From an uncultured Verrucomicrobiae bacterium (lineage in GTDB: Bacteria; Verrucomicrobiota; Verrucomicrobiia; Chthoniobacterales; UBA10450): a stretch of 64,000 nucleotides of DNA. The position numbers were made by a program, and so were the translations under genes. The notes under the pieces were generated by a model that did not search any database, had not been told where the DNA came from, and saw only the letters and a list, made by a program, of their open reading frames with translations. The number at the start of each line of letters is the position of its first letter. The first letter of the stretch is position 1. Positions 14,193 through 36,941 of this stretch are shown here, in pieces. The stretch covers positions 48,757 to 112,756 of the forward strand of contig CAVYVJ010000024.1 of assembly GCA_963771865.1 (NCBI GenBank), read 5' to 3'.

Positions 14193-14220
14193 CGACTCAC
14201 GAAAAACAGCCTTTGGTCGA

Positions 14221-15600: not shown

Positions 15601-15616
15601 GTCTCAGTTCGTTAGG

Positions 15617-16012: not shown

Positions 16013-16021
16013 AACGATCTC

Positions 16022-16138: not shown

Positions 16139-16175
16139 AGTTCACGAGACGAAAAACGCGGAGCCATTCTCCGCG

Positions 16176-17796: not shown

Positions 17797-19302
17797 CTAG
17801 CGCCCGTAAAGAAAGATTGCCACGCCCCCAATTACCAGAACAGCGATCCCGACGTAAAGCCACATCAGTGTCCCCTCCTGCGCCGCCTCCCCCCGACTGT
17901 AGGCCGTGCGATCGAAAGCCCGGCCGCGAATCCGGCCCTTGCGCAGGAAGCCATCGTAGTGGCGCTGGATTAAATGAGTCTCAACCTGGCGCATGGTATC
18001 GAGAATCACGCCCACAATAATGAGAAGGCTGGTGCCGCCAAAAAACTGCGCAGTGATCGTCGGGACGTGCAGTCCCTGGCTAAGCAAACTGGGCAGAATT
18101 GCGATCAGGGTAAGAAAAATCGCACCTGCAAAAGTCAGGCGGGTCATCGTGAAATCGAGGAAATCCGCCGTCGGTTTGCCGGGACGCACTCCTGGGATGT
18201 ACCCGCCGTATTTTTTCAAATCATCCGCGATCTGGGCGGGCTGGAATTGGGTGGCGACCCAGAAATAACTGAAAAAGAAAATCATCGCCGCGAGAAAAAC
18301 GTAATGCAGCCAGCCATTTGCGAGCATGTCAGAAATCTGCCGAGCGGTCGGGCTGTTCTTGAAGGCGAGGCCGACGATCGTGGTGGGAAAAAGCAAGAGG
18401 GCCCAGGCAAAGATGATTGGCATGACGCCCGCGTAGTTCACTTTCAGCGGCATATACTGCGTCTGCCCGCCGTACATCTTTCGACCTACGACCCGTTTCG
18501 CGTACTGCACCGTAATCTTGCGGACGCCTTGCGTGACGGCGATGACCGCCGCGATGACAATGAAGAGAAACGCCACCATCAAAACGAGAATGGCCGGGTT
18601 CACCTGGCTCGTCCCCGTTTGCGCGGAAGGAACAAAAGTCTTCCATGCCTGCGCGAGAGCAGCGGGCAGGCGCGCCACAATCCCGATCGTGATGATCAAC
18701 GAGATACCGTTGCCAATACCTCGATCGGTTATTTGATCGCCCAACCACATCAAGAAAAGCGTGCCCGCGGTCAGGGTGAGAACCGTGATGATCCGGAAAG
18801 ACCATCCGAGATTATCGACCAACGGGATCCCAAGCCTCGCCGTTGTCTCGGTAATACCGGGAAGCATGGTGTGATACGACTCCGGATGCTGAAATGACAC
18901 CGCGAGCAAGTATCCCTGGAAAATGCAGAGCACGACCGTGGCGTAACGGGTGTACTGCATGATCTTCTGCCGGCCGCCATCTTCGCGCGACAAGCGGCTG
19001 AGCGAGGGAATGACCGCCGTCAGCAACTGCAACATGATTGAGGCGCTGATGTAGGGCATGATCCCGAGCGAAAAGACGGCGCAGTTCTCGAGCGCCCCGC
19101 CGCTGAAAAGATTGAAGAGCGCCGCGACACCGCCGCCCGCGCTCTGTGATGAAGTGCGAAACCAGTCTTGCAGCACCGCTGGATTCACTCCCGGCGTTGT
19201 AATCGCAGCGCCCAACCGGACGATGACAATGACCGCAAGGGTAAACAAAATCCGCCGGCGCAGCTCCGGGATTTTAACGCTGTTTAAGAAAGCCGAAACC
19301 AT
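17797..19302 (-). CDS. secY: preprotein translocase subunit SecY (with ~55-aa C-terminal extension)
   Basis: It has the ten-helix SecY pattern in the spc-operon position. The tail after ...HLIQRHYDGFLRKG adds an extra hydrophobic helix (LMWLYVGIAVLVIGGVAIFLY). Confidence 0.93.
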   Translation of the reverse strand: MVSAFLNSVKIPELRRRILFTLAVIVIVRLGAAITTPGVNPAVLQDWFRTSSQSAGGGVAALFNLFSGGALENCAVFSLGIMPYISASIMLQLLTAVIPSLSRLSREDGGRQKIMQYTRYATVVLCIFQGYLLAVSFQHPESYHTMLPGITETTARLGIPLVDNLGWSFRIITVLTLTAGTLFLMWLGDQITDRGIGNGISLIITIGIVARLPAALAQAWKTFVPSAQTGTSQVNPAILVLMVAFLFIVIAAVIAVTQGVRKITVQYAKRVVGRKMYGGQTQYMPLKVNYAGVMPIIFAWALLLFPTTIVGLAFKNSPTARQISDMLANGWLHYVFLAAMIFFFSYFWVATQFQPAQIADDLKKYGGYIPGVRPGKPTADFLDFTMTRLTFAGAIFLTLIAILPSLLSQGLHVPTITAQFFGGTSLLIIVGVILDTMRQVETHLIQRHYDGFLRKGRIRGRAFDRTAYSRGEAAQEGTLMWLYVGIAVLVIGGVAIFLYGR

Positions 19303-19329
19303 CCGCTCAGTCCGCTTTAGAAGATCCGC

Positions 19330-19911
19330 TTATTTAGCGGTCTTCTTCTTCTTTTTCGCTGCCGGTTTCTTCGGTTCGGCGTTCGCCGCAGCCTCTGCGA
19401 CCGCGGGGGCTTTTTCCTTCGCTTCTTCCGAGCCGGATCGCTTGCCGCTGGTCAACGAGGGGCGCTGCCGCAACGTGACGGTGCCACCAGCCTTCTCGAT
19501 TTTTTCCCGCGCAGATTCGCTGACCCGATCGGCCTCGATCGTCAGGCCGTGTTTTAACTCGCCCCGGCCGAGGATCTTTAACCCCACGACATTCCCGCGA
19601 ATATGTTTCGACTCGCGCAAAGTCTGCTCGTTGACCACCGTGCCCGCCTTAAAATCGCTCAGATCATCCAGATTGATCAGCGCATAATGTTTCTTGAAAG
19701 CCGCGTTGTTAAACCCGCGCTTCGGCAAACGGCGGATCAACGGCATCTGACCGCCTTCGAAACCAAGTCGAATGCTGCCACCAGAGCGTGCCTTTTGGCC
19801 CTTGTGACCCTTGCCGCTCGTCTTGCCGTGGCCGGAGCTCTCGCCGCAGCCAAGCCGCTTCACGCGATGCCTCGAACCAGGCCGCGGTTTGAGGTTGTGC
19901 AACCGAATCAT
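19330..19911 (-). CDS. rplO: 50S ribosomal protein L15 (Lys/Ala-rich C-terminal tail)
   Basis: [44 protein letters not shown]... is canonical L15. Confidence 0.93.
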
Positions 19912-20471
19912 GACTGCTTCGCCTCCTCACCGTTGCTGGTGCTCGCGCGAATCCCGCGCGTTTTCAGAATTTCGTCGCGGCGACGGAGGGAACGGAGCGC
20001 TTCGATCGTGGCCTTGACGACATTGGCGTGATTGCTCGAGCCTAACGATTTGGCGAGCACGTCGCGAATTCCGACCGCCTCCACGACCGCACGGACGCCA
20101 CCACCGGCAATCACACCCGTTCCAGGTGACGCCGGACGCAGCAAGACGCGTCCACCGCCGAACTCGCCAATGACTTCATGGGGAATCGTATTCTCGCGCA
20201 GCGACATTTTTTCCATCGATTTGCGCGCCGCCTCGGATGCCTTGCGAATCGCTTCCGCGACTTCATTCGCCTTACCGAAACCGCAGCCGACTTTACCGTC
20301 GTGATCGCCCGCCACGATGAGAGCGCTGAAGCTGAAGCGACGGCCGCCTTTCACGACCTTGGCGCAGCGATTGATGAAAACGACTTTCTCGGTCGTGTCG
20401 CCTCTTGCCGGAGGCGTCCGGTCCGTGGTGCGTGAGTCGCTTCGTCTGCCTTGGTTGCCTGCGTAAGCCAT
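19908..20471 (-). CDS. rpsE: 30S ribosomal protein S5
   Basis: It has the S5 dsRBD and C-domain ([38 protein letters not shown]). It overlaps the rplO start by 4 nt, so there is no room for L30. Confidence 0.95.
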
Positions 20472-20472
20472 A

Positions 20473-20838
20473 TTAGAGTTTGAGTCCGCCTTCGCGCGCT
20501 GCGTCGGCCAGCGCTTTCACTTTCCCGTGGTAGAGAAACCCACCACGATCAAAAACTGCTTTGTCGATATTCTTCGCGAGCAAGCGCTCGGCAATCAACT
20601 TCCCGATCTTCTCCGCCGTCGCTCGATTGGCCGCGTGTTTTCCTTTTCCACCGACTGCTTTCTCGGTCGTACCCGCGGAGACAAGCGTCTGGCCTTTCTC
20701 GTCATCGACGACCTGGGCGTAAACATGCTTTCCAGAAAAATAGACGCAGAGCCGGGGTCGTTCCGCCGTCCCGGAAACCTTCCGCCGAATGCGGTCATGA
20801 ATGCGTCCGCGAATGACCTTTCGATTAATTGCAGCCAT
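20473..20838 (-). CDS. rplR: 50S ribosomal protein L18
   Basis: [20 protein letters not shown]...[26 protein letters not shown] is canonical L18. Confidence 0.95.
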
Positions 20839-20840
20839 GG

Positions 20841-21380
20841 CTATTGAACAGTCTTGCCCTCCTTGCGGCGAATTTGCTCGCCCGCATAACGGACGCCTTT
20901 GCCCTTGTAGGGTTCGGGCGGATAGAACCCCCGAATGTCCGCCGCGACCTGACCGACCGTTTTCTTGTCGGCGCCCTCGATCGCGATCTTGGTGTTATCC
21001 GTGACAGTAATCTTGATTTCGGGGGGAATTGGGAAAAGCACCGGATGCGAAAAGCCAAGACTCAGATTGAGGTTTTTTCCCTGCACCGCAGCCTTGAAGC
21101 CAACGCCCTCGATTTCGAGCTGCTTCCCAAAACCCTGGCTCACACCCACGACCATGTTGTTAATCAGGGCGCGCGACAGCCCGTGCAGCGCCTTCAGACT
21201 GCGCGTTTCGGCGTCGCGAACCAGCGAGACCTGATTGTCGGCCACCTTGGCCTTGATTCCCTCCGGTAGAGTCCAGCTAAGCTTCCCTTTCGGACCTTCA
21301 ACCGCGACTTTGCCGTCGTCGTCGATGTTCACTTTTACTTTGGCGGGAATCTCAACCGCCTTGTTTCCAATCCTTGACAT
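20841..21380 (-). CDS. rplF: 50S ribosomal protein L6
   Basis: [17 protein letters not shown]...[11 protein letters not shown] is canonical L6. Confidence 0.95.
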
Positions 21381-21390
21381 AACACTCCGG

Positions 21391-21789
21391 TTACCAGACG
21401 AACGCCAGCAACTCCCCTCCCACTTTTTGTTTCTTTGCTTCGCGTCCGGACATCACACCTCGTGAGGTGGAAAGAATGGCGGTTCCCATCCCGCCGAGCA
21501 CTCGCGGAATTTCATCGGCACCCACGTAGCGGCGCAAACCGGGACGACTGACGCGTTTTAACCCCGTGATGGCGCCGGTGCGATTCGAAATTTTGTTGGT
21601 GATCTTGATTCGCGGGTGAGCCGCGGAGGTATCAAGGACGAAGTCAGTGATGTAGCCTTCTTCCTTCAGGATGCGAACGATCTCGCTCTTCACTTTCGAG
21701 TAAGGAACAAACATTTCGGGTTTCTGCGCCTGGGTGCTGTTTCGCACCCGGGCGAGAAGGTCGGCAATAGGATCGGTGACTGTACTCAT
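21391..21789 (-). CDS. rpsH: 30S ribosomal protein S8
   Basis: TDPIADLLARVRNS...GGELLAFVW is canonical S8. Confidence 0.95.
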   Translation of the reverse strand: MSTVTDPIADLLARVRNSTQAQKPEMFVPYSKVKSEIVRILKEEGYITDFVLDTSAAHPRIKITNKISNRTGAITGLKRVSRPGLRRYVGADEIPRVLGGMGTAILSTSRGVMSGREAKKQKVGGELLAFVW

Positions 21790-21794
21790 GAAAT

Positions 21795-22367
21795 TTAGGC
21801 GGCTTGGGCGACGGACTTCTTCGGCCGGTCGCTGAAAGGCATTCCCAATTCGCTCAAAAGCGATTTGGCCTCTTCGTTCGTGCGCGCGGTGGTCACAATC
21901 GTAACATCAAAACCGATGTTGCGCTTGATTTTGTCCAGCTCGACCTCGGGAAAAATCGACTGATCGGAAACGCCGAGAGTGTAGTTGCCGTGGCCGTCGA
22001 ATCCTTTCGGCGAAACGCCGCGGAAATCGCGGATGCGCGGGAGCGAAGCCTTGATCAGGCGTTCCATGAATTCATACATGTGTTCGCCCCGCAGGGTGAC
22101 CTTGGCGCCGATCGCCTGCTCTTTACGTAGCTTGAAATTGGAGATGCTCTTCTTGGCCCGGGTCTCGGCTGCTTTTTGACCGGTAATGAGAGCGAGTTCC
22201 GCCTTCGCTTCTTCCAGCGCCTGCTTCACATCCGACTGCGAGCCGACCGACGTGTTGATCACGACCTTCTCCAGCTTCGGGATCTGGTGATCGTTCGTGT
22301 AGCCATGGTGCTTGCGCAATGCCGGCACGACGCGCTCTTTATACTCTTTGTAAAATTCGTTTTCCAT
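21795..22367 (-). CDS. rplE: 50S ribosomal protein L5
   Basis: This is canonical L5 (PKLEKVVINTSVG, RDFRGVSPKGFDGHGNYTLGV). Only 5 nt separate it from rpsH. Confidence 0.95.
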   Translation of the reverse strand: MENEFYKEYKERVVPALRKHHGYTNDHQIPKLEKVVINTSVGSQSDVKQALEEAKAELALITGQKAAETRAKKSISNFKLRKEQAIGAKVTLRGEHMYEFMERLIKASLPRIRDFRGVSPKGFDGHGNYTLGVSDQSIFPEVELDKIKRNIGFDVTIVTTARTNEEAKSLLSELGMPFSDRPKKSVAQAA

Positions 22368-22384
22368 TTGCTAACATCTCTCCC

Positions 22385-22418
22385 TCTTTGTCATTTCGAG
22401 TCGGCTCGGGATGACAAA
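22385..22418. repeat. short hairpin inside the spc operon (rplX-rplE spacer), related to the GTCAT...ATGAC repeat family
   Basis: CTTTGTCATTTCGAG-TCGG-CTCGGGATGACAAAG forms a 15-bp stem (two G-U pairs in RNA) with a 4-nt loop. Confidence 0.7.
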
Positions 22419-22430
22419 GCTTCAAATTCG

Positions 22431-22736
22431 TCACTCGTCTTTCTTAGTCTTTTTCTCCTTCGTCGCTTTGGTTTTGCCCTTTTTCTTCCCCGCTTTCTCG
22501 CTGCGTTCGACCACTTTTACGTTCGAGATGTGAATCGGACCTTCGCGCTCCGCGATCGAGCCGGAAGGGTTGTCCTGCGACTTGCGGAGGTGTTTCTTGA
22601 TCATCCGCACGCCTTCGATCAGGACGCGCTCCTTGCGAGAAAGCACTTGCAGGATCTTGCCGGTGGACCCCCGGAAATTCCCCGAGATCACTTCGACCTG
22701 GTCGCCTTTTTTTACGTGGTGCTTGATCCGATTCAT
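22431..22736 (-). CDS. rplX: 50S ribosomal protein L24
   Basis: It has the KOW motif region ([20 protein letters not shown]) and a Lys-rich tail. Confidence 0.93.
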
Positions 22737-23101
22737 AACACTTCAGGCGCGAGCGAAACGATCTTCATGAAATTGCGCTCACGCAGCTCCCGGGCGACGG
22801 GACCGAAAATACGGGTGCCGCGCGGATTTAGATCCTTGTCGATGATGACAATCGCGTTGTTGTCGAAACGGAGGAGGGATCCGTCATCGCGGCGAATCGG
22901 TTGTTTCGTGCGGACGAGGACCGCGCGAACCACTTCGCCCTTCTTTACCGTTCCCGTTGGGCTGGCCTCTTTCACGTTCGCGGTGATGACGTCGCCAATC
23001 CCGGCACATTGTGCGCTCCCTTTGCCAATCACGCCGATCATCGTCGCCATGCGGGCGCCGCTGTTGTCGGCCACGTCCAATCTGGATCTCAGGTAAACCA
23101 T
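22733..23101 (-). CDS. rplN: 50S ribosomal protein L14
   Basis: ...[12 protein letters not shown]...[29 protein letters not shown] is canonical L14. Confidence 0.95.
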
Positions 23102-23111
23102 AGAGTTCTCC

Positions 23112-23405
23112 TTATTTTTGGACGACCTCGACGAGGCGCCAGCGCTTCAACTTGCTCAACGGTCGCGTTTCCATGATGCGCACGGTGTCGCCGAGCTTGG
23201 CTTTGCTCTCTTCATCGTGAGCGTAAAATTTCTTCTTCTGCTTCACAATCTTGCCGAAGGTCGCGTGCGGCACGCGCGTGACCGTCCGGACAATAATTGT
23301 CTTGTTCATTCCGCTTGAAATGACTTCGCCGACGCGCGTTTTGCGCGTTCCGCGCGCCTCGTTGGCAGCCGGCGTTTGTTCTTTGGTCGCTTCGTCCATG
23401 ATCAA
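23112..23405 (-). CDS. rpsQ: 30S ribosomal protein S17
   Basis: [18 protein letters not shown]...[31 protein letters not shown] is canonical S17. Confidence 0.95.
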
Positions 23406-23627
23406 TTACTTCTTTCCTGTGGACGGCTCCGCCGCCGGTTGCTTGTTGCGTTGCGAGAGCACTGTCTCGACCCGGGCGACTTCGCGCCGCAGGAGCCGCA
23501 TCCGGCTCGGCTGTTCCAACTGTCCGCTCTGTTGTTGTAGACGGAGGTGGAGGCTTTCCTGGCGCAGGTCGCGCTTCTTCGTCAGAAGCTCGTCCGTGCT
23601 CATTTCCTGGATCTCTTTAAATTTCAT
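23406..23627 (-). CDS. rpmC: 50S ribosomal protein L29
   Basis: MKFKEIQEMSTDELLTKKRDLRQESLHLRLQ is canonical L29. Confidence 0.93.
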   Translation of the reverse strand: MKFKEIQEMSTDELLTKKRDLRQESLHLRLQQQSGQLEQPSRMRLLRREVARVETVLSQRNKQPAAEPSTGKK

Positions 23628-23640
23628 TTCTCGTTAGTCG

Positions 23641-24063
23641 TTAGGCCGCGACGTGGTGGCGGCTGAGGAACTTGGTCCGGACCGGCAGCTTGTCGGCGGC
23701 AAGGCGGAGCGATTCGCGCGCGACTGACTCGGGCACGCCGTCCAGCTCGAACAAAATGTTGCCGGGCCTGACCGTCGCCACCCAGTACTCGGGCTGGCCT
23801 TTGCCTTTACCCATCCGGGTCTCGGGCGGGCGCGAGGTGACGGATTTGTCGGGGAAAATCCGGATCCAAAGCTTGCCTTTGCGTTTCATGTTGCGGGTCA
23901 GGGCGACACGGGCGGCTTCGATCTGGGTATTGGTGATCCAGGCGCGTTCCAGCGTCTGAAGGCCAAATTCGCCAAAGTCGATGCGGAGATTGCGCGAGGC
24001 CGTGCCCTTGCGGCTTCCCCGCTGGCTCTTGCGATACTTGACGCGTTTGGGCATTAATGGCAT
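23641..24063 (-). CDS. rplP: 50S ribosomal protein L16
   Basis: [20 protein letters not shown]...[14 protein letters not shown] is canonical L16. The TAA stop is inside a GCCTAACGA copy. Confidence 0.95.
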
Positions 24064-24085
24064 GGCGATCTCTCCTTAAAATTCG

Positions 24086-24766
24086 TTAGGCTGCAACGGG
24101 CTCGGCCGCGGCCGGCGGCGGTGTGGCAGGCGCCGCGGGGGCTTCTTCCTTCTTACAAATCCAGCATTTTACACCGATCTTGCCGTAAACCGTGTTCGCC
24201 TCGGCGAAGCCATAGTCGATCGGCGTTCGGAGCGTGTGCAGCGGCACTTTGCCTTCGCGATACCATTCCGAGCGAGAAATCTCCGCGCCATTCAACCGAC
24301 CCGAGCTGCGCAACCGGATTCCCTGCGCCCCAAAGTCCATCGCGATTTGCACGGCTTTTTTCATCGCCCGGCGATAAGCGATTCGGCGCTCGATTTGGAG
24401 CGCGACGTTCTCCGCCACAAGCTGGGCGTCGAGTTCCGGCGTCTTGATTTCCTGGATGTCGATCTTGATCTGTTTTCCCTGCGCCATCTTCGAGATTTCC
24501 TCGGTCATCTTCTCGATTTCAGCGCCTTTACGTCCAATCACGATACCGGGCCGGGCAGTGTGAATGGTGACACGGATACTGTTCCAGGCGCGCTCGATAA
24601 TAATTTTCGCGACCGCAGCGAACTGGAGCTTCTTCTTCACGTAGTCCCGAATAGCGAGATCGCCTGCCAAAAACGCCGGCATTTCCTGGGGCGAGGCGTA
24701 CCAGCGCGAACGCCAGTCGCGGTTCACACCGAGACGAAAACCGATTGGATTAACTTTTTGTCCCAT
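24086..24766 (-). CDS. rpsC: 30S ribosomal protein S3
   Basis: [24 protein letters not shown] plus the KH domain is canonical S3. The TAA stop is inside a GCCTAACGA copy. Confidence 0.95.
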
Positions 24767-24769
24767 GAA

Positions 24770-25246
24770 TTAGCTTTCTGTTTCCTTCGTCGCAGTTGCC
24801 TCGGCGGCTGCTTCTGTTTTCGACGCAGCAGTCGCCCTCGTTTTCCCGCTTGGCGCCTTTTTCTTCTTCGCGCCGCCCGAACCCTTCGCCTTCTTTTCGC
24901 GGCGCTTGATCTCTATTTCATCGGTTAAGACGATTCGAATATGGCTGCTCCGTTTCCGGATCGTGCTGCCGCTGCCGCGGGCCCTTGTCATCATGCGCTT
25001 CATCGTCGGGCCTTCACCCACGATTGCTTCCTTCACCACGAGTCCGTCGACGCGCAGGTTGGCGTTGTTCTCCGCATTGGCGATCGCGCTCTTCAAAGTC
25101 TTGCTGATCATTGCGGCCGCCTTTTTCGGGCTGAACGCAACAACGTCGAGCGCGGCCGAAACCGGCAGACCCTGAATGGCGCGAGTGACCTCGCGCGCTT
25201 TGAACGCCGAAATCTTCGCGTAACGATATGTCGAGCTAACTTCCAT
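24770..25246 (-). CDS. rplV: 50S ribosomal protein L22 (basic/Ala-rich C-terminal tail)
   Basis: It has the canonical L22 core (YAKISAFKAREVTRAIQG, RGSGSTIRKRSSHIRIVL). Confidence 0.93.
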   Translation of the reverse strand: MEVSSTYRYAKISAFKAREVTRAIQGLPVSAALDVVAFSPKKAAAMISKTLKSAIANAENNANLRVDGLVVKEAIVGEGPTMKRMMTRARGSGSTIRKRSSHIRIVLTDEIEIKRREKKAKGSGGAKKKKAPSGKTRATAASKTEAAAEATATKETES

Positions 25247-26056
25247 TTACTTTAAACTTGCACTTTGGCGCGCATCCACCTGGAGGCGATCGCCTACTTT
25301 TATTTTTACTTTTTCCGAATCCAATTCCTGAATGACCGCGCCGCTGATCTTTTCGCGCACGTCCACCACCCGCAGGGTTGCGACCGTTTTACCGGCCCGC
25401 ACCACTCGCAACGGCATCCCGAGCTTCACTCCCTGCCGGGCCCCGAGGTTGCCCACCACCAGCGACCATTCTTCCTTCACGCTCAGGACCTTGCCGTCCA
25501 TCAAGTCGGACTCGGTCCTTTCGTTAGACGAATTCTCGTCCTTCGCGATCAGGAGCTGGTTCGTTCCGCGCAGTTGCGCTTCAACCTCCGCCCGCGCCTG
25601 GGGATCTGCGCTCGGCGTGCTCTTCACGTAGCGGAGCATGGTCTCGCTCAACTTCAGCAATTGCTCGCGATACGCTTCCTTCTCCTTGTTCATGAGTTGA
25701 AGGTCGCTGACCGCTTTCAGCAGACGCTGCTCGAGTTTCGCCCGGTCTTTGCTGACCGATTCGACCCCAAGAGCGTCCATCCGCAATTGCAGCTCGGAAT
25801 ATTTCCGGCGAAACAACTCCGCTTCCGCATTCGAGACGACGAGACTGTCGGTCAACGTCTTCTGCGTTTCGCGGTCGAGCGAAAGCTGTTTGCGCAAGAG
25901 ATCATTCTGCGAAAACAACGTCTCCGACGTCACTTTCGCCTCTGCGGTTTCAAGATTGGAATCTGACAAAGAACTATCTTCTGCCGCCAGCCCGGAGGCC
26001 GACCACAGACACACCAGCACAATTGAGAGCCGGAAATTGAGAGCGGAGACTTTCAT
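25247..26056 (-). CDS. hypothetical secreted coiled-coil protein with C-terminal beta-rich domain, embedded in the S10 operon
   Basis: It has a signal peptide (MKVSALNFRLSIVLVCLWSASGLAA), ~130 aa of heptad-like E/K/L/Q-rich sequence, then VLSVKEEWSLVVGNLGARQGVKLGMPLRVVRAGKTVATLRVVDV. A GAGAGGATGAG SD-like sequence precedes the ATG. Its stop abuts the rplV ATG. Confidence 0.7.
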   Translation of the reverse strand: MKVSALNFRLSIVLVCLWSASGLAAEDSSLSDSNLETAEAKVTSETLFSQNDLLRKQLSLDRETQKTLTDSLVVSNAEAELFRRKYSELQLRMDALGVESVSKDRAKLEQRLLKAVSDLQLMNKEKEAYREQLLKLSETMLRYVKSTPSADPQARAEVEAQLRGTNQLLIAKDENSSNERTESDLMDGKVLSVKEEWSLVVGNLGARQGVKLGMPLRVVRAGKTVATLRVVDVREKISGAVIQELDSEKVKIKVGDRLQVDARQSASLK

Positions 26057-26088
26057 CTCATCCTCTCATTCCGCAACCATCGATTGAA

Positions 26089-26367
26089 CTACTTCGTCAC
26101 CTTCGCGGTGTGCGACCCGTGCTTCTTAAAGATACGGGTAGGTGAAAACTCGCCGAGTTTGTGGCCGACCATATTTTCGGTCACAAACACGGATTGAAAA
26201 ATTTTGCCGTTATGAACGAGGAAGGTGTGACCCACAAAGTCCGGGGTCACCATCGAGCGGCGCGACCAGGTCTTAACCGGTTTCTTCACGCCCGAACTGT
26301 TCATCTTATCGATCTTCTCGAGAAGATGCGGCTCTACAAAAGGTCCTTTTTTTAGCGATCTGCCCAT
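26089..26367 (-). CDS. rpsS: 30S ribosomal protein S19
   Basis: [16 protein letters not shown]...[11 protein letters not shown] is canonical S19. Confidence 0.95.
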
Positions 26368-26370
26368 AAA

Positions 26371-27216
26371 CTATTTCTTCTTCCGGCGCTCCAGAATGAA
26401 ACGATTGCTCACCTTGCGTTTGTGGCGTGTCTTAAAGCCTTTCGCAAGCTGGCCCCACGGACTCACCGGGTGATGTCGTCCGCCGCCGCCCTTTGATTTG
26501 CCCTGACCGCCACCCATCGGGTGATCGATCGGGTTCATAACCATGCCACGCACATGTGGGCGGCGACCCTGCCAGCGTGTCCGCCCGGCCTTGCCGCTCG
26601 CGACGTTCATATGGTCGACATTGCCGACCTGGCCCATGGTTGCATAGGCGCTCTCGTGGATGCGGCGAATCTCGCCGGAAGGTAATTTTACGAGCGCATA
26701 ACCGCCTTCGCGGTTGCTTAACGTTGCCTGCTGGCCCGCGCTGCGCGCAATCTGTCCACCCCGACCCGGCATAATTTCAATGCAATGAATGTTTGCGCCC
26801 AACGGAATCGCCCGGAGAGGCAGGGCGTTGCCGACGTTCGGCGGCGCGTCATCGCCGGCCGTTACCTTGGCGCCAACTTGCAGACCGTCCGGCGCGAGAA
26901 TGTAGCTCTGCTCGCCATCGCTGTATTTGATCAACGCGATTCGCGCGGTCCGATTCGGATCGTACTCGATCGCGGTGACCTCAGCCACGATGCCCCGTTT
27001 CCGGCGCTTGAAGTCGACCTTGCGGTATTTCTGTTTGTGACCGCCGCCGATGTGGCGCGAAGTCAGGCGACCCCTGTTGTTGCGGCCGCCGCTTCTTTTC
27101 TTTGGCTCGGTTAAACTCTTAACCGGCTTGGACTGCTTTTTGGTCACCGCCAGAAACATCGGAAGCGCCTTAAAACGCAGTGCCGGCGTGAGTGGACGAA
27201 AATTTCTTAAAGGCAT
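26371..27216 (-). CDS. rplB: 50S ribosomal protein L2
   Basis: GGGHKQKYR..., MNPIDHPMGGGQGKSKGG is canonical L2. Confidence 0.95.
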   Translation of the reverse strand: MPLRNFRPLTPALRFKALPMFLAVTKKQSKPVKSLTEPKKRSGGRNNRGRLTSRHIGGGHKQKYRKVDFKRRKRGIVAEVTAIEYDPNRTARIALIKYSDGEQSYILAPDGLQVGAKVTAGDDAPPNVGNALPLRAIPLGANIHCIEIMPGRGGQIARSAGQQATLSNREGGYALVKLPSGEIRRIHESAYATMGQVGNVDHMNVASGKAGRTRWQGRRPHVRGMVMNPIDHPMGGGQGKSKGGGGRHHPVSPWGQLAKGFKTRHKRKVSNRFILERRKKK

Positions 27217-27245
27217 AACAGATTAAAAATTCGGATTTCTGGTCG

Positions 27246-27530
27246 TTAGACCAGATCGATCTTCTCGCCCTCCTCCAGAGTCACGATGGCTTTCTTCCAG
27301 TGCGCCTTTCGGCCAAAATCGGCGCGACGCTCGCGCCTTTTCTTGCCCGCGTAATTGCAGGTATTCACGTCCACCACCTTCTTCTTAAACAGAAGCTCGA
27401 TCGCCTGCTTAATCTGGATCTTGTTGGCGCGGGGATTTACCCGGAAGACATATTTGTTGAGCTTCTCGCTCAGCAAAGATGCCTTCTCGGTCAATTGCAC
27501 CGTCTGAATCAAATCGTAAGGCTCGTTCAT
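27246..27530 (-). CDS. rplW: 50S ribosomal protein L23
   Basis: LTEKASLLSEKLNKYVFRVNPRANKIQIKQAIE is canonical L23. The stop is inside the variant GTCTAACGA. Confidence 0.93.
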   Translation of the reverse strand: MNEPYDLIQTVQLTEKASLLSEKLNKYVFRVNPRANKIQIKQAIELLFKKKVVDVNTCNYAGKKRRERRADFGRKAHWKKAIVTLEEGEKIDLV

Positions 27531-28138
27531 GAGCTTGTCCTTTCAGCCAGTTGTTCCAGCGCCTTTGGGGTGACAATAATCTTGTCGAATGCCAGAAGTT
27601 GCTCCGTGTTCACATCGGCCGCCGTTGCGAGCAGGACCGGTCGAACGTTCCGCGCGGAACGATAAAACGTTTCTTCGAACGAATCGGAAATCAGCAGCAC
27701 CTTCTTCGCGTCGGTGTGGCCTTTGACCAGACTAACGAATGCTTTGGTCTTCGGTTCCTTGATGCTGAAAGCGTCAACCGTCAGGACGTCACCGGCCTTG
27801 ATCCGTTCGCTCAGAGCTTTTTGAAAAGCGAGCCGGCGGACCGTCTTCGAAACCTTCTTCGTGTAATCACGGGGTTTCGGGCCAAAAACAACTCCGCCGC
27901 CACGCCAAATCACTGACGACTTGTAACCGGCCCGAGCCCGGCCAGTGCCTTTTTGGCGCCACGGTTTCGCGCCCGAGAGATTGACGTCTGCTTTCGTCTT
28001 TGTGTTGGCCGAGCCGGAGCGGCGCGCCGCGCGCATCGCCACGACGACATCATGCATTGCCTGGGTCCCGCGCCCGTTTTCGATCAACGCGATCTTCGCG
28101 TCCTTCGCTGCCTCTGCTGTTAAAACTTTTGCGGCCAT
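27527..28138 (-). CDS. rplD: 50S ribosomal protein L4
   Basis: KPWRQKGTGRARAGYKSSVIWRGGGVVFGPKPRDY is canonical L4. Confidence 0.95.
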   Translation of the reverse strand: MAAKVLTAEAAKDAKIALIENGRGTQAMHDVVVAMRAARRSGSANTKTKADVNLSGAKPWRQKGTGRARAGYKSSVIWRGGGVVFGPKPRDYTKKVSKTVRRLAFQKALSERIKAGDVLTVDAFSIKEPKTKAFVSLVKGHTDAKKVLLISDSFEETFYRSARNVRPVLLATAADVNTEQLLAFDKIIVTPKALEQLAERTSS

Positions 28139-28141
28139 CTG

Positions 28142-28852
28142 TTATCGAACGGTTATCGCGGGCTTCTTCGCCGCTTCAGCTTCGTCTTGCTTCCGGTGCG
28201 CCTCATGTTCGGCAAGCACCCTCCCCGGATTTTTGATCGCCGGCCTAACGACAACATAACTGCCGTTCGCTCCCGGGACCGCGCCACTGATCAGAATGAC
28301 TTTGTCGGCTTCGCGGACCTGCACCACCTGGAGGTTCTGCACCGTCACACGTTCGTCACCCATGTGACCCGGCATTCCCATGTTCTTCCAGATCCGACCG
28401 GGAGTGGAACGGTTGCCGATGGCGCCGTTGCGCCGGTGAGTCTTCGAACCGTGCGCCGCGCCTTGTCCGGCAAAGTTGTGCTTCTTCATCACGCCCTGGA
28501 ACCCTTTGCCTTTGGAATGGCCAATCACGTCGACATAATCGCCCGGCTGGAACTGCGTGACCGCGAGGTTGATCTCGCCTTCCGGCGCATCTCGCCTAAG
28601 CCGAAATTCCCGGACAAATTTCTTCGGCTCGGAGTTCGCCTTGCCGAATCCGCCGAGAAGCGCCTTCGTCACGCGCGATTCCTTTTGCTTGTCGAAGCCG
28701 ACCTGGATGGCCGAATAACCGTCGTTTTCGCTCGTTAGGCGACGGAGCAGCGTGTTATCCCCGGCCGCGATCACGGTCACCGGACGCAGCTTGCCCTCGG
28801 CGTCGTAGACGCTGGTCATGCCGATTTTCTTTCCTAAAAGTCCGATGCTCAT
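28142..28852 (-). CDS. rplC: 50S ribosomal protein L3
   Basis: GLLGKKIGMTSVY..., GKGFQGVMKKHNFAGQGAAHGS is canonical L3 with a short charged tail. Confidence 0.95.
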   Translation of the reverse strand: MSIGLLGKKIGMTSVYDAEGKLRPVTVIAAGDNTLLRRLTSENDGYSAIQVGFDKQKESRVTKALLGGFGKANSEPKKFVREFRLRRDAPEGEINLAVTQFQPGDYVDVIGHSKGKGFQGVMKKHNFAGQGAAHGSKTHRRNGAIGNRSTPGRIWKNMGMPGHMGDERVTVQNLQVVQVREADKVILISGAVPGANGSYVVVRPAIKNPGRVLAEHEAHRKQDEAEAAKKPAITVR

Positions 28853-28862
28853 GGTCGATTCT

Positions 28863-28941
28863 TGTCATCCTGAACGCAGTGAAAAATCTCTACCTGCGCT
28901 GAAATTTCGTTAAGGGATTCTTGGCTTCGCTCAGAATGATA
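28863..28941. repeat. degenerate GTCATCCTGA...TCAGAATGA palindromic element in the rpsJ-rplC spacer
   Basis: The left arm is TGTCATCCTGAACGCAGTGAAAAATC. The reverse complement of the right arm is TATCATTCTGAGCGAAGCCAAGAATC. This is an imperfect copy of the family seen perfectly at 63098-63198. Confidence 0.65.
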
Positions 28942-28952
28942 GTTTTTAAAGG

Positions 28953-29264
28953 TTAAATCTTGATCGTGATATCCACGCCGGCGGGGAGGTTGAGCTTTTT
29001 CAACTCGTCCACCGTCTTGGCGGTCGGCTCGATTATATCCAGCAAACGTTTATGGGTGCGAATCTCAAATTGGTCCATCGACTTTTTGTCGACGTGGGGG
29101 GAGCGATTGACCGTGAACTTCTCGATCAAGGTCGGGAGCGGAATCGGGCCCGCCACCCGGGCCCCGGTGCGCTTCGCGGTCTCGACAATATCGACCGCGG
29201 ATTGATCGAGCATTCGATGGTCGAATGCCTTCAAACGAATGCGAATGCGTTGCGCGTCGGCCAT
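28953..29264 (-). CDS. rpsJ: 30S ribosomal protein S10
   Basis: [16 protein letters not shown]...GPIPLPT...[13 protein letters not shown] is canonical S10. Confidence 0.95.
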
Positions 29265-29265
29265 A

Positions 29266-31440
29266 TTACTTCGTTTCCTTCTGGTCGAGGACGGCCGCGA
29301 CGAGCTGTTGCGGGACTTGTTCGAAATGAGACGGCTCCATCGAGTAACTCGAACGGCCTTTGGAAAGCGAACGAATGGCGGTGGCGTAACCGAACATTTC
29401 TGCGAGCGGCGCTTCCGCGTTCACAATCGTAAGGTTGCCACGCGCTTCGATGCTGTTCACTTTGGCGCGACGGCGATTCAAATCGCCGATGATGTCGCCC
29501 TGATATTCTTCCGGGGTCGAGTTTTCGACCTTCATGATCGGCTCGAGCAGGATCGGCTTCGCTTTTTTGAACGCGTCCTTGACCGCAAAGATGGCCGCGA
29601 GCTTGAACGCCATTTCGTTCGAGTCGACGTCGTGATATGAGCCGTCGACGATATCGACATGGGCGTCGATCACCTGGTAGCCGCCCACCACGCCGTTGAG
29701 CATCGCTTCTTCGATGCCCTTCTTGCACGCCGGGATGTATTCCTTGGGAATGTTTCCGCCGACCACCTTGTTCTCGACCGTGATGCCTTTGCCGCGCTCG
29801 TTCGGGTGCACCTTGACGATCACGTGGCCGTACTGACCGCGGCCACCTGATTGCTTGATCAGCTTGCCTTCGCCGTCGGCCGGGTTGGTGATCGTTTCGC
29901 GATAAGCGATCTGCGGTTTGCCCGCGTTCGCGTCCACCTTGAATTCACGGAACATGCGATCACGAATGATCTCGAGATGCAGTTCGCCCATGCCGGCGAT
30001 AATCGTCTGGCCGGTGTCTTCGTGGGTGAAGACCTTGAAAGTCGGATCTTCTTCAGACAAACGCTGCAAGGCCGTCGCCATTTTTTCCTGGTCCTGCTTC
30101 GTCTTCGGCTCGATCGCCATCGAGATAACGGGATCAGGAAAGGACGGTGGCTCGAGGAGAATCACGTGGTCCTCGTCGCAAAGCGTGTCGCCGGTTGTGA
30201 TGTTCTTGATCCCGACAATGGCGGCAATGTCGCCCGAGTAACACGTCTCGATATCTTCCCGCTTATCGGCCTGAATCTGAATCAAACGCGAAATGCGCTC
30301 GCGCTTGTTTGTGCGCGGATTGTAAACTGTGTCGCCTTTCGAAAGCGTGCCGGAATAAACGCGGAAGAAAACGAGCTTTCCGACGAAGGGATCGCTCCAG
30401 AGCTTGAAGGCGAGCGAGCAGAAAGTTCCGTTGTCGTCCGTCGGCGCTTCAATCGGCGTGCCGTCGTCCGGGTCCTGACCTTTGGCCGGCGGAATGTCGA
30501 GCGGACTCGGCAAATAATCGATCACCGCATCAACGAGATACTGCACACCCTTGTTCTTAAACGCGCTGCCACCGACGACCGGCACAAATTTGTTCGCGAT
30601 CGTTTGCCGACGAATTCCAGCCTTCAACATTTCCGGCGTGACTTCACGTTCTTCGAGCACGGCTTCCGCAACTTCGTCGTCAATGTTGGAAATTTGTTCG
30701 ACGAGATCGGCATAAGCCTTGTCGACCTCGGCTCTATTCTCTTCCGGAAGCTCGCGCACTTCGTAGACCGACCCCATCGAGTCGTCATCTAGATAGAAAA
30801 CCGCCTTCCTGTTCACGACATCGAGCTGGCCTTTGAGGTAATCCTCTTTGCCCAACGGAATAAGAATCGGCCAGGCATTCGCGGCCAATTTCTTCCGCAT
30901 CGAGTCGATCGAGGCCTCGAAGTTCGCCCCGACGCGGTCCATTTTATTAATGAAAGCGATTCGCGGGACCAAATATTTGTTCGCCTGACGCCAGACGGTC
31001 TCGGACTGCGGCTGCACCCCGGCGACCGCATCGAAAACCGCGATTGCGCCGTCAAGGACGCGAAGCGAGCGCTCCACCTCCGCGGTGAAATCCACGTGGC
31101 CGGGCGTGTCGATGATGTTGACCCGCATTTTGATGTCCTCAAACATCTTGTAAACGCCAGGCTCCGGTTTCTGCGTCCAGGCGCAGGTGGTGGCGGCCGA
31201 AGTGATCGTGATCCCGCGCTCGCGCTCCTGCTCCATCCAGTCGGTCACAGTCGTGCCTTCATGCACCTCACCGATCTTGTGGATCATGCCGGTGTAAAAA
31301 AGAATGCGCTCGGTCAGGGTCGTCTTGCCGGCATCAATGTGCGCCGCGATTCCGATGTTTCGCGTCCTTTCGAGCGGATACTTGCGGTTGGGCGAATTCG
31401 GATTCGTCATGACAGGTCTTTCTAAAGTCGCGGAGGCCAT
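29266..31440 (-). CDS. fusA: elongation factor G
   Basis: It has GTPase motifs [17 protein letters not shown] and NKMD, and full EF-G domains II-V (724 aa). Its stop is 1 nt from the rpsJ start. Confidence 0.95.
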
Positions 31441-31453
31441 AACGGAGAATTCT

Positions 31454-31927
31454 TTACCAGCGGAAGTGAGCGAAGGCCCGGTTCGCTTGCGCCATCTTGT
31501 GCGTGTCGTCGCGTTTCTTGATCGCGTTGCCTTGACCGGCAGCCGCGTCGCGCAGCTCGTGAGCGAGCGCTTCAGCCATTGGCATGCCGCGCCGGTTGTC
31601 GGCGTAGGTAACGATCCAGCGCATCGCCAGCGAAATCTGACGGGAAGGGGTGACCTCCATCGGAACCTGATAGGTGGCGCCGCCTACCCGGCGGGATTTC
31701 ACCTCGAGACGGGGGCGCACATTTTCGAGCGCCTTGTTCACGACTTCGAGCGGGTCAACCGCATCGGAACCTTCGCGGGATTTGTCGATCGCAGTATAAA
31801 CGATCCGTTCCGCGAGCGATTTCTTGCCGCGCTTCATCACGGTGGAAATGAGACGCGCGACCGCCACGCTGCCGTAACGGGAGTCGACCTTCTCTTCTTT
31901 CTTATAAGTTCTGCGACGACGAGACAT
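31454..31927 (-). CDS. rpsG: 30S ribosomal protein S7
   Basis: ...[29 protein letters not shown]...[13 protein letters not shown] is canonical S7. Confidence 0.95.
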
Positions 31928-31939
31928 GGGAAAATCTGG

Positions 31940-32347
31940 TTATTTCTTCTTCGCGGCCTTTTCGCCTTCCGCGGCGGCCTTCGGGCGTTTCGCGCCGTAC
32001 TTCGATCGGCTGCGGCGGCGGCCATCCACGCCTAACGAGTCGAGCGTTCCGCGCACAATATGGTAACGCACCCCCGGCAAATCCTTGACCCGTCCGCCGC
32101 GCACGAGGACGATCGAGTGTTCCTGCAAATTATGGCCTTCGCCCGGAATGTAGGCGATGACTTCCTGGCCGTTCGTTAGGCGCACTTTGGCCACTTTGCG
32201 CAAGGCAGAATTCGGCTTCTTCGGCGTCCGCGTCATCACCTGGGTGCAGACGCCGCGCCGCTGCGGACAATTTTTCAGGGCCGGTGATTTTGATTTCACC
32301 GAGACCTTTTTTCGTCCCTTCCGAATAAGCTGATTGATCGTTGGCAT
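31940..32347 (-). CDS. rpsL: 30S ribosomal protein S12 (Lys/Ala-rich tail)
   Basis: The canonical start [13 protein letters not shown] is at ATG 32347 (the track ORF begins 21 nt upstream). [19 protein letters not shown] is also present. Confidence 0.93.
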
Positions 32348-32446
32348 TTTCGTACATTCGAGCGGCAAAACCGTTAGGTTTCAGCCGACAAAAAAACCGC
32401 TCAAGCCGTGTCCACCTTCCTCACGCACCTGATACGGAGAGCGCGC

Positions 32447-32474
32447 AATATAGGAACAAATTATGCCCTCGCAA
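32447..32474 (-). promoter_or_regulatory. candidate sigma70-type promoter of the str/S10/spc/alpha super-operon
   Basis: The minus strand reads TTGCGA (32474-32469), a 16-nt spacer, then TATATT (32452-32447), about 95 nt upstream of the rpsL ATG. This is sequence resemblance only. Confidence 0.35.
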
Positions 32475-32601
32475 GATTATTTTAGAGCGAAACGCAACGC
32501 CTGCGACAAATATTGAACCGCTGCGTTGCGCCTAACAAAAATCGCCTAACGAGCCGCCTCCGCGGAGCATTGCCAGAACGGCACTGGTTTTTTTCAAAAT
32601 G

Positions 32602-34518
32602 TCAGGCGAGCGCGGCAGCCAGAATGCTCAATTCTTCCCAACGTGCATATAACCGCGCCACCTCCGCCCGCGCCGAGCGCAATTCCGCATCCACCTGCGG
32701 AAATTCAGCGGCGTGCTGCACGAAAAAATCCGGGTCGGACAGACGCGCCTCAATCCGAGCGACCTCTTCTTCCGCTGCGAGAATCGCCGCCTCCATTCCT
32801 TCCAGCTCGCGCTCCTCTTTCCATTTCAGTTTGCGCGGCTTCCGGTTGTAGCCGGGATCGCTCACCCCGGCTTTGGGAGCGCTTGCCTCCGGACTGGGAC
32901 CGGGATCAGCGATCCCGGCTACAACCCGTTTTTCGAGGTAATAATCGTAATTGCCGACGGAATAGCGCAGCAGACCGTCGCCTTCGAACGCGAGAATCGA
33001 GGTGCAGACACGGTTCAAGAAGTAGCGATCGTGACTAACGACGACAACGCTCCCGCCGAAGGCGACGAGCGCTTCCTCGAGCAGGCGCAAAGTGCCGAGA
33101 TCGAGATCGTTTGTCGGCTCGTCGAGAATGAGCACATTGCCGCCGCGCTTAAGGATTTTCGCCAGCAACACCCGGCTGCGTTCGCCTCCGCTGAGTTGAT
33201 TGATTTTGGTATTGATCCGTTCCTCGGTGAAGAGGAAGCGCCGCAAATATCCGCGCAGCGTGATGTTTTCTTCACCCAGGCGCACGTATTCCATCCCCTC
33301 ACCCACCTCTTCCCAAACCGTCTTTGCATCATCGAGGAGCAGGCGATTTTGATCGACGTAGTTGATCTCGGTGCGCGTGCCGATCTCGACTTCACCAATC
33401 GTCGGTTGGAGTTGGCTGAGCATGATCCTGAGCAGGGTCGATTTGCCGAGCCCGTTGCGTCCGACAATTCCGAGCCGCTCCCCGGCCTTCAAGCCTAACG
33501 AGACGTTGCGGAACAACCAGCGCCCGCCCAGTTCGATCCCGACATCGCGCAATTCGATCACGCGATTGGCCAGCTTCGGTGCCGGTGGGATGATCAAATC
33601 CACTTCGAGTTCCGCTTCCGGCCCCTCCTGCGCAGCCATTTCAAAATAGCGCTCCACCCGATCGACTGATTTTGTCCGCCGCGCCCGCGGCGCCTTGCGC
33701 ACCCAGGCCAACTCGCGTTTCAGAAATCGCTGGCGCTTGTGCTCCTGCATCTCTTCGACCGCCGCACGCTCGGCCCGGGCCAGCAGATAATCCGTGTAGT
33801 TTCCGTCGTAGCTGTAGAATTTCCCACGCGACAACTCGATCACCCGCGTCGCGATGCGATCGAGGAAATAGCGATCGTGCGTCACGAACAGACAGGTTCC
33901 GCTGTAACGCGCGAGAAAATCCTCCAGCCATTCAATCGAGCCGGTGTCGAGATGATTCGTGGGCTCGTCGAGAATGAGAAAATCCGGCCGCGCGAGCAAA
34001 GCGCGGCAAAGCGCAACGCGACGTTTCTCGCCACCGGACAATGTCGCGACGGCGCGCCCTGGATCGGGCGCGTGCAGGTTCGTGATCAGGCTCTTGATGC
34101 GATGCTCAAGATTCCAGCCGTCGAAATGCTCGATCTGCTCGAGCAATATCCCACTGCGCGCACTTTCCGGCCGAGCGTCTTCATATTCGCGGATCAAATC
34201 CAGGACCCGTTGCGCACCGGCAAGAATGTTCGCGTGCACGGTCGCGGTTTCATCAAGCTCAAACATTTGCGGCATATAGCCAACGACAAGGTCGCGACGC
34301 CGATTCAACTCGCCCGCATCAGGCTGCATCACTCCGGCTGCGATTTGCAGAAAAGTCGATTTGCCGGCGCCGTTGCGCCCGACCAACCCGATCCGTTCGC
34401 CTTCCAAGATCGTAATCGACGCCCGGTCCAAGATTACCTGGTGGCCGAACCTGACGACCAGTTCACTCGCGCTCGCAATCGTGTTTGGGGAGGCTTCGGC
34501 CATTCCAAGAGATAGCAC
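32602..34518 (-). CDS. ABC-F family ATPase (Uup/YheS-like translation-associated ABC protein)
   Basis: It has two ATPase cassettes (Walker A GRNGAGKST and GRNGLGKST; signatures LSGGEKRR and LSGGERSR), no TM domain, and a C-terminal coiled coil. Confidence 0.9.
   Translation of the reverse strand: MLSLGMAEASPNTIASASELVVRFGHQVILDRASITILEGERIGLVGRNGAGKSTFLQIAAGVMQPDAGELNRRRDLVVGYMPQMFELDETATVHANILAGAQRVLDLIREYEDARPESARSGILLEQIEHFDGWNLEHRIKSLITNLHAPDPGRAVATLSGGEKRRVALCRALLARPDFLILDEPTNHLDTGSIEWLEDFLARYSGTCLFVTHDRYFLDRIATRVIELSRGKFYSYDGNYTDYLLARAERAAVEEMQEHKRQRFLKRELAWVRKAPRARRTKSVDRVERYFEMAAQEGPEAELEVDLIIPPAPKLANRVIELRDVGIELGGRWLFRNVSLGLKAGERLGIVGRNGLGKSTLLRIMLSQLQPTIGEVEIGTRTEINYVDQNRLLLDDAKTVWEEVGEGMEYVRLGEENITLRGYLRRFLFTEERINTKINQLSGGERSRVLLAKILKRGGNVLILDEPTNDLDLGTLRLLEEALVAFGGSVVVVSHDRYFLNRVCTSILAFEGDGLLRYSVGNYDYYLEKRVVAGIADPGPSPEASAPKAGVSDPGYNRKPRKLKWKEERELEGMEAAILAAEEEVARIEARLSDPDFFVQHAAEFPQVDAELRSARAEVARLYARWEELSILAAALA
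32845..32925. repeat. REPIN-like doublet (TGTAGCCGGGATC... family) lying in-frame inside the ABC-F gene
   Basis: GTTGTAGCCGGGATCGCTCACCCCGGCT ... CCGGGATCAGCGATCCCGGCTACAAC spans 81 nt (27 codons). It is translated as VVAGIADPGPSPEASAPKAGVSDPGYN in the ABC-F linker. Confidence 0.8.
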
Positions 34519-34621
34519 AATCCGACAAGCCGATCAGTCGTGTCAGCGTCCGAAGGTGAATCGACTCGCGAACAATGGCCGCGCGCACATTGAAGTTGAG
34601 AGATCGGCTACGTGGCTCAGA

Positions 34622-35754: not shown

Positions 35755-35775
35755 TCAACCCTGAAGTTCGGTCGC

Positions 35776-36936: not shown

Positions 36937-36941
36937 GCCGG

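Follow-up and report, generated by a model that had tools for sequence, protein, structure and literature searches.

Rare codons in ribosomal protein genes of an uncultured Chthoniobacterales bacterium and a hyper-abundant nine-base word in its genome

Uptake sequences are described from two families of Proteobacteria (10.1101/2025.10.24.684340), as the uptake signal sequence (USS) of Pasteurellaceae and the DNA uptake sequence (DUS) of Neisseriaceae; HIP1 (GCGATCGC) of cyanobacteria is 15- to 300-fold over-represented and was still of unknown function after 20 years (PMC5861425). The subject here is a 9-mer, GCCTAACGA (reverse complement TCGTTAGGC), hereafter the word, in a stretch of 64,000 nucleotides, hereafter the window, from an uncultured Verrucomicrobiae bacterium of the order Chthoniobacterales (assembly GCA_963771865.1, contig CAVYVJ010000024.1, positions 48,757 to 112,756), where a preliminary description had found the word written into conserved codons of ribosomal protein genes by means of rare leucine codons.

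The USS combines a 9-bp core and weak flanks with more than 1,000 copies per genome, most of them in genes (in H. influenzae, 65% in open reading frames, or orfs; PMC2817400). It roughly doubles the tripeptides that it specifies, is absent from genes without homologues in relatives, and exists in more than one type within its family. The DUS is found family-wide in thousands of copies, with genus-specific words and variation in abundance, and its frames that contain stops are avoided inside genes; it is recognised by the minor pilin ComP (10.1101/2025.10.24.684340), and a minor pilin receptor has been predicted in Pasteurellaceae (PMC12616744). HIP1 is short, hyper-abundant and lineage-wide, occurs in and out of genes, and has no demonstrated function in the accounts cited; orphan methyltransferases recognise its internal palindromes (PMC4390886).

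In copy number, core and flanks, placement in genes, avoidance of frames that contain stops, tripeptide usage, absence from DNA without homologues and variation within a family, the word of the window resembles the USS and DUS, as detailed below. It differs from the USS in belonging to the phylum Verrucomicrobiota, in being unrelated to it in sequence, and in that the likeness is one of genome footprint. Uptake sequences are already known to affect codons and proteome (PMC2817400); the novelty here lies in the lineage, the words, and a family that has two of them. No literature was found that connects Verrucomicrobia, Chthoniobacter or Udaeobacter with the word or with uptake sequences of any kind, in a search whose coverage leaves out most subscription journals and in which the 20 papers listed, among 130 that contain the 9-mer, had unrelated titles. 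The rare codons of the ribosomal protein genes are almost certainly a by-product of accumulation of the word, at the level of DNA, throughout the genome.

The word in the ribosomal protein cluster and in the genome

All of the ribosomal protein genes that carry the word sites named here are on the minus strand. In rpsE (ribosomal protein S5, 187 aa, 19908..20471; NCBIfam TIGR01021, 208.9 bits), the word at 20040..20048 encodes, as TCG TTA GGC, the Ser-Leu-Gly of a conserved KSLGS (AAA TCG TTA GGC TCG). In rpsL (ribosomal protein S12, an orf of 142 aa from TTG, 31940..32368; TIGR00981, 229.7 bits, with the S12 family match beginning at residue 8), one copy at 32173..32181 lies in the conserved VRLTNG (GTG CGC CTA ACG AAC GGC) and another at 32030..32038 in DSLGV (GAC TCG TTA GGC GTG). 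In rplC (ribosomal protein L3, 236 aa, 28142..28852; TIGR03625, 252 bits), the copy at 28732..28740 falls within CGT CGC CTA ACG AGC GAA (RRLTSE), where (C)GC CTA ACG A(GC) is Arg-Leu-Thr-Ser. The coordinates and codons that the preliminary description gave for these four sites were exact, and the NCBIfam models confirm that the proteins are S5, S12 and L3. Three further copies in the cluster had been passed over: a fifth in-frame copy, in rplC at 28243..28251, where (G)TC GTT AGG C(CG) encodes Val-Val-Arg-Pro with the rare arginine codon AGG, and two copies read as GCC TAA CGA on the minus strand, at 23638..23646 and 24083..24091, whose TAA terminates rplP (23641-24063) and rpsC (24086-24766), respectively.

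These sites are a small sample of a genome-wide pattern. The genome is a draft assembly of 4.84 Mb in 47 contigs with 58.1% G+C, 80% complete with 5.6% contamination and likely frameshift errors, and its 4,268 genes were called by a self-trained orf scorer (75% coding), a caveat for all gene-based counts that follow. The word occurs 1,848 times against 37.4 expected from an order-3 Markov model, an enrichment of about 49-fold, and is the commonest 9-mer of the genome; the next unrelated 9-mer has 799 copies. The window has 33 copies, whereas 100 shuffles of it gave a mean of 0.32 and a maximum of 2, none reaching 33. Variants with one mismatch are also raised (9-312 copies each), and the central A and C (positions 6-7) are least tolerant of change. 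The word is preceded by a weak pyrimidine-T-C and followed by A, with no further conserved flank, and these preferences are identical in 375 intergenic and 1,222 coding copies. Since the flanks beyond the nine bases are only weakly preferred, the word is free-standing and no part of a longer repeat.

The last point bears on whether the copies could belong to a mobile or repeated element, such as a miniature inverted-repeat transposable element or a repetitive extragenic palindrome, or be an assembly or adapter artefact. Longer repeats do exist in the genome, for example a 14-mer with 120 copies, but the information content around the word is approximately zero beyond three flanking bases on either side, in-frame copies stand at orthologous positions of conserved genes in 18 congeners that were assembled independently, and the 120 other genomes of the family show the word raised to differing extents. 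An element or artefact is refuted, its likelihood having become vanishingly small. Among the unrelated longer repeated words, TCGGGATGACAA has 168 copies, CGATCCCGGCTACA 120 and AGCGAAGCGTCTAC 92, and there are many A-runs of at least 14; the longer words are probably parts of dispersed repeats, of one family or several.

The codons concerned are rare, as had been supposed: TTA (3.9%) and CTA (3.3%) are the two least used of 119,179 leucine codons genome-wide. The word contains 8.4% of all TTA, 6.6% of CTA, 5.2% of AGG and 4.8% of CCT codons. Leucine elsewhere in these genes had been said to be mostly CTG, CTC or TTG, and the counts for the 22 ribosomal protein genes of the window agree (CTC 81, CTG 73, TTG 47, CTT 30, TTA 15, CTA 7). 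The statement that TTA and CTA are used exactly where they complete the word describes rpsE, rpsL and rplC well, four of their five such codons being inside it, and does not extend to the 22 genes together, in which the figure is 4 of 22. The argument that these are the most expression-optimised genes carries little weight: TTA makes up 5.9% of the 253 leucine codons of the 22 genes compared with 3.9% genome-wide, and the ribosomal protein genes show no clear codon optimisation against TTA. No strong translational selection is seen in them for the word to override. The pressure toward the word is strong enough to override ordinary codon preference.

Reading frames bear on the level at which the word acts. 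Four frames are open to it. As TCG TTA GGC (SLG) it has 390 copies, and 391 of 894 eligible peptides are word-coded where 4.6 are expected from codon use; the corresponding figures are 390 copies and 384 of 541 peptides (16.9 expected) for xxG CCT AAC GAx (xPN[DE]), 255 copies and 256 of 771 (2.9 expected) for xGC CTA ACG Axx (xLTx), and 212 copies and 214 of 600 (2.5 expected) for xTC GTT AGG Cxx (xVRx), so that the excess over all four is 23- to 88-fold. Put another way, 44% of SLG tripeptides use one coding out of 108 possible. The two closed frames occur solely as true stops, GCC TAA CGA in 91 genes and T CGT TAG GC in 58, with the result that the word supplies the stop codon of 149 predicted genes, including rplP, rpsC and hemL. 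Of the 1,848 copies, 1,247 are wholly within genes, a majority as for the USS. Coding DNA has 0.34 copies per kb, and intergenic or non-coding DNA a similar 0.38. The tripeptides themselves are inflated, SLG (894) and PNE (371) exceeding all permutations of the same residues (500-763 and 91-188, respectively), which fits the approximately two-fold inflation reported for USS and DUS (PMC2817400). The four open frames, the stops in the closed frames, the equal non-coding density and the common flanks support the conclusion that the word acts at the level of DNA. The preliminary description had argued for selection or drive on DNA and against a protein-level coincidence, and the filling of all four frames, stops and non-coding DNA upholds it.

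In the rest of the window, the word at 53844..53852 on the minus strand, (AG)T CGT TAG GC(G), provides the TAG stop of hemL (53846-55261), and 25 other copies span 2502..62413, starting at 2502, 4182, 4566, 6212, 6605, 11794, 32544, 33493, 35088, 35957, 36510, 37122, 39217, 39555, 40268, 40423, 41620, 42254, 44197, 47171, 54110, 59205, 60943, 62086 and 62405. Of these, 21 are wholly in frame inside genes, three are intergenic (32544, 35088 and 40268), and the one at 40423-40431 sits just beyond a TAG stop with which it has one base in common. Two genes of the window, both on the minus strand, are each split over two overlapping frames: recG (3718-5785), with the wedge domain and the start of the DEAD domain in 4562-5785 and the C-terminal helicase part in 3718-4827, and recJ (5789-7502), with its core in 6111-7502 and its OB domain in 5789-6214. 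Either the frameshifts are genuine or the assembly has indel errors here, and such errors would also lower the computed coding fraction. The ribosomal protein S11 domain of a 242-aa orf (14872-15600, minus strand) is confined to residues 132-241, so that either the N-terminus is much extended or the start was called too far upstream.

Orthologous sites and distribution in the lineage

Codons at the ribosomal sites were read through tblastn alignments in genomes of the same genus, in 12 other families of the order, and in low-word members of the same family (nine genomes of eight genera, with 13-160 copies of the word each). Related genomes are not independent samples. The counts omit the L3 paralogue L086 and treat the two loci of G005 as one, and locus L028 (G009) ends short of, or otherwise misses, the DSLGV site.

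At VRLTNG of rpsL, the word is present in 14 of 16 genomes of the genus (13 of 15 without G004), the other two differing by CTA to CTG; it is present in none of the 12 other families, of which two have CTA without making the word, and in none of the nine low-word family members, which have no CTA at all (TTG in seven, CTG in two). At KSLGS of rpsE, 11 of 17 congeners have the word and 15 of 17 have TTA, compared with 0 of 12 for both in other families and one word in seven low-word family members. At DSLGV of rpsL, 7 of 15 congeners have the word and 10 of 15 have TTA; none of the 12 other families has the word and one has TTA; and three of the nine low-word family members have the word. At the RRLT site of rplC, the word is found in 7 of 15 congeners (CTA in 9 of 15) and neither the word nor CTA in eight low-word family members; other families, which have Q-x-K-T at this position, are incomparable, and low-word family members have RR[LV]T in other codons. 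At VVVRPA of rplC, 4 of 15 congeners have the word and 6 of 15 have AGG, a codon absent from this position in all 12 other families and all eight low-word family members. Both checks by which the preliminary description could have been refuted, the rarity of TTA and CTA and the codons of relatives without enrichment of the word, thus leave it standing, since such relatives lack the same codons at these sites, and the alignments of S12, S5 and L3 bear out the expectation that synonymous changes creating the word would be lineage-specific.

Except at the RRLT site of rplC, amino acids are identical throughout at the compared sites, and KSLGS, VRLTNG and DSLGV are conserved over the order. The idea that the word made the amino acids was considered and rejected: the leucine of DSLGV, which the preliminary description had taken to be unusual for S12, is ancestral (present in 11 of 12 other families and in all nine low-word family members), RR[LV]T of L3 is family-wide and includes the low-word genera, and codons alone differ. 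The word copies at ribosomal sites arose through synonymous change, which alone suffices to reach the word at conserved positions (for example, CTG or TTG to CTA, or CTC to TTA). The frequency of the word at these sites follows its genome-wide abundance.

The same comparison disposes of conservation or inheritance at the protein level, by which SLG and RLT would simply be conserved and their codons inherited or due to chance. The peptides are indeed conserved in the order, and copies shared by the genus may partly be identical by descent. However, all 12 other families and most low-word family members write the same peptides with different codons, the use of a single coding for so large a share of SLG is left without a reason, and the same nine bases fill three other frames, stops and non-coding DNA. 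This account is hardly credible in any form, and a protein-level coincidence as the sole explanation is refuted.

Over the lineage, the word has 976-4,336 copies in 18 of 18 genomes of the genus (17 of 17 without G004) and 1-19 copies in the 12 other families, at or below the level of a reversed control word, which has 12-99 copies in the same comparison. Within the family (121 genomes of 36 genera), counts range from control level to 4,336 and vary by genus, as does the abundance of the DUS; a single genus ranges from 160 to 2,412. These tallies include the unpublished genomes G004 in the genus and G037, G042 and G049 in the family, and no statement depends on these four. Five genomes reached through loci of elongation factor G (EF-G) have 117-374 copies where reversed-word controls have 39-64. 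The EF-G loci of the named relatives and the fusA region of the window itself contain no copy of the word and are uninformative for the comparison.

A second, unrelated word, AAGATCGACA(A), is the top word in 154 kb sampled from the low-word genome G069. Among the 121 genomes, it reaches 500-4,653 copies in many genera of the family in which the first word is low; its reversed control has 0-4 copies, and may run low because it contains CTAG. In the genus of the window the second word has 9-44 copies, near background, and in the genome of the window AAGATCGACA is not meaningfully enriched (44 copies, 19 expected). Both words are hyper-abundant together in one genus (G062, G085, G102 and G117), for example 1,803 copies of the first and 4,653 of the second in 2.9 Mb, and two words in one genus could mean two recognition systems or a switch in progress. 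The second word is dense in the ribosomal operon, with nine copies in about 15.8 kb of G069 and likewise of G078. A third word was sought in 91 kb sampled from G059, which has neither of the two, and was rejected because its most frequent 10-mers come from 7-bp tandem arrays at a few loci and are not dispersed. The arrays, with units CACCGTT and TCACCGA, are at L183:12725-12810 and at L186:2595-2640, 4618-4662 and 7598-7650.

Polarity, word-free stretches and uptake genes

The word is short, asymmetric, over-represented and non-palindromic, as are the polar signals of recombination (Chi) and chromosome translocation (KOPS, FtsK-orienting polar sequences). Chi and KOPS signals are co-oriented with replication and only modestly enriched. 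The two strands of the draft contigs carry 926 and 922 copies of the word, and GC skew does not predict which way a copy points: over 218 windows of 20 kb the correlation is 0.002, windows of negative skew having 496 forward and 482 reverse copies and those of positive skew 345 and 372. The largest contig, of 529 kb, has 97 copies in each direction, and 645 copies are sense to genes and 602 antisense. The word is therefore without polarity of replication or transcription on these draft contigs, and its enrichment of about 49-fold is far above that of Chi; a signal of the Chi or KOPS type is very improbable.

All but one of the 47 contigs have copies, at densities of 0.18-0.72 per kb, and there are also ten word-free stretches of 21-43 kb, slightly lower in G+C (0.556-0.587), such as C44:1-43432, C25:22265-60588 and C30:78956-116979. 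At the density of the word, a word-free stretch of 38 kb has a chance of about e^-14. One such stretch, that on C25, was compared with one control. The first 20 kb of the word-free stretch has multi-kb matches in 3 of 25 congeners, three more matching a single gene and the rest giving short paralogous matches, whereas a 20-kb control from the window, with 12 copies of the word, has multi-kb matches in 24 of 25 congeners, and among the best 150 matches listed its well-conserved parts contain 11 of the 12 copies. The genes of the C25 stretch encode proteins of two-partner secretion, filamentous-haemagglutinin-like, porin, Sel1 and PEP-CTERM types. Among the 20 orfs scanned there, no phage or transposase matches were found and seven belong to no family, so that it is the patchy presence in congeners, not gene content, that points to a foreign origin. 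Depletion of the word in an island lacking homologues in congeners matches the pattern reported for uptake sequences, which are likewise missing from genes without homologues (Findlay & Redfield 2009, PMC2817400).

Genes with which DNA could be taken up are present. The genome encodes ComEC (184.7 bits), DprA (259.4 bits), an HHH_3 (ComEA-type) domain (47.3 bits), three secretins and four ATPases of the PilT family that pass the cut-off, together with 18 prepilin N-terminal domains. One of the three secretins is in the window (9759-11624, minus strand, 621 aa, with Secretin and Secretin_N domains). It was considered as a member of a type IV pilus operon and rejected in that role, since its neighbours are a radical-SAM enzyme of the CofH/MqnC type and a proteasome-like protein, with no pilMNOPQ.

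The process behind the word and its meaning for the family

The observations fit a process in which one 9-bp word would pile up wherever the encoded protein tolerates it. Competent cells would favour the uptake of DNA fragments that bear the word and would then recombine these into the chromosome, such that mutations creating the word would spread and mutations destroying it would be lost, a molecular drive held in balance by mutation and protein constraint. On a slight balance of probability, and by analogy with USS and DUS, the likeliest engine is an uptake-biased drive of this kind, part of which would be a receptor that recognises the word. Pointing in this direction are the copy number, the free short core with its graded flanks, the presence of both orientations and all usable frames, the inflation of tripeptides, the absence of the word from accessory DNA, the lineage-specific words within a family and the presence of uptake genes.

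Several observations weigh against a drive by uptake. We know of no member of the lineage that is transformable. The ComEA equivalog model TIGR00426 has no match in this genome, which is 80% complete, and the same family searches for ComEC, DprA and HHH_3 match in 10-11 of 14 well-known control genomes; since most control genomes score too, the machinery is permissive evidence only. Spacing of the word is more clumped than random (coefficient of variation 1.42), and close inverted pairs are nearly absent (7 among 18 neighbour pairs less than 60 bp apart, of 1,802 gaps), whereas inverted-repeat terminator pairs are a feature of USS and DUS, about half of whose copies and more than 90% of whose inverted-repeat copies lie in predicted terminators (10.1101/2025.10.24.684340). 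All four coding frames of the word require a rare codon, in contrast to known uptake systems, in which frame use is reported to correlate with preferred codons, and the ribosomal copies are at highly conserved residues, whereas the USS is reported preferentially at poorly conserved ones (PMC2817400). Two unrelated words coexist in one genus, whereas the described dialects of the DUS are near-variants of one word (10.1101/2025.10.24.684340). Finally, synonymous conservation among congeners is 0.773 in the codon columns of the word (n = 9) and 0.727 in 258 other degenerate columns with invariant residues, which gives no sign of site-by-site maintenance and suggests turnover, not fixed functional sites; drive with turnover predicts such weak conservation, but simple inheritance predicts it equally.

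The turnover also counts against the proposal that the word is the binding site of an abundant chromosomal protein, for nucleoid organisation or segregation, with each copy under selection. Its spread over nearly all contigs, its exact form and its constrained centre would suit a binding site. Selection on each of about 1,850 sites, however, would be very weak, yet codon choice is overridden in essential genes; a given ribosomal site is common to only 4-14 of 15-17 congeners, and synonymous conservation of the copies is close to that seen elsewhere; accessory DNA lacks the word; and sister genera have a different word or none. A binding site is accordingly improbable.

The main rival, still unlikely but less so, is that the word is of the HIP1 type and upheld by some other DNA process, whether sequence-specific modification, nicking or repair that biases gene conversion, or a chromosomal function. 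The statistical footprint is like that of HIP1, hyper-abundance without known function (PMC5861425). A horizontally moving enzyme could account for two unrelated words in one family and for both in one genus, and two palindromes, GATC and TCGA, lie within the second word. In contrast, the first word differs from its reverse complement and is without any 4-bp palindrome, whereas HIP1 is a palindrome that overlaps the sites of orphan methyltransferases to which it is tied (PMC4390886). We know of no repair bias with 9-bp specificity.

Whatever its driver, the word has practical value for annotation. It explains odd codon usage, accounting for 5-8% of all TTA, CTA, AGG and CCT codons as well as the 149 stops, and its absence flags accessory DNA. 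If the driver is not uptake, the word is, like HIP1, a hyper-abundant word without explanation, and we know of no earlier one that is asymmetric.

In the furthest-reaching reading, whose chances fall a little short of even, this uncultured soil family of Chthoniobacterales, which apparently includes metagenome-assembled genomes labelled Candidatus Udaeobacter, would have the first uptake-sequence system outside Proteobacteria, with self-preferring natural transformation and at least two unrelated recognition words, GCCTAACGA and AAGATCGACAA. The replacement of one word by another between genera and their coexistence in one would then imply swapped or duplicated receptors, and two unrelated words, with genera that have both and genera that have neither, amount to a natural experiment in which comparative genomics could find the receptor. 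DNA uptake biased by sequence would have more than one evolutionary origin, its drive would be strong enough to put the rarest codons into synonymous positions of ribosomal protein genes, and for bacteria that resist cultivation the word would be a purely genomic sign that recombination within the lineage is frequent.

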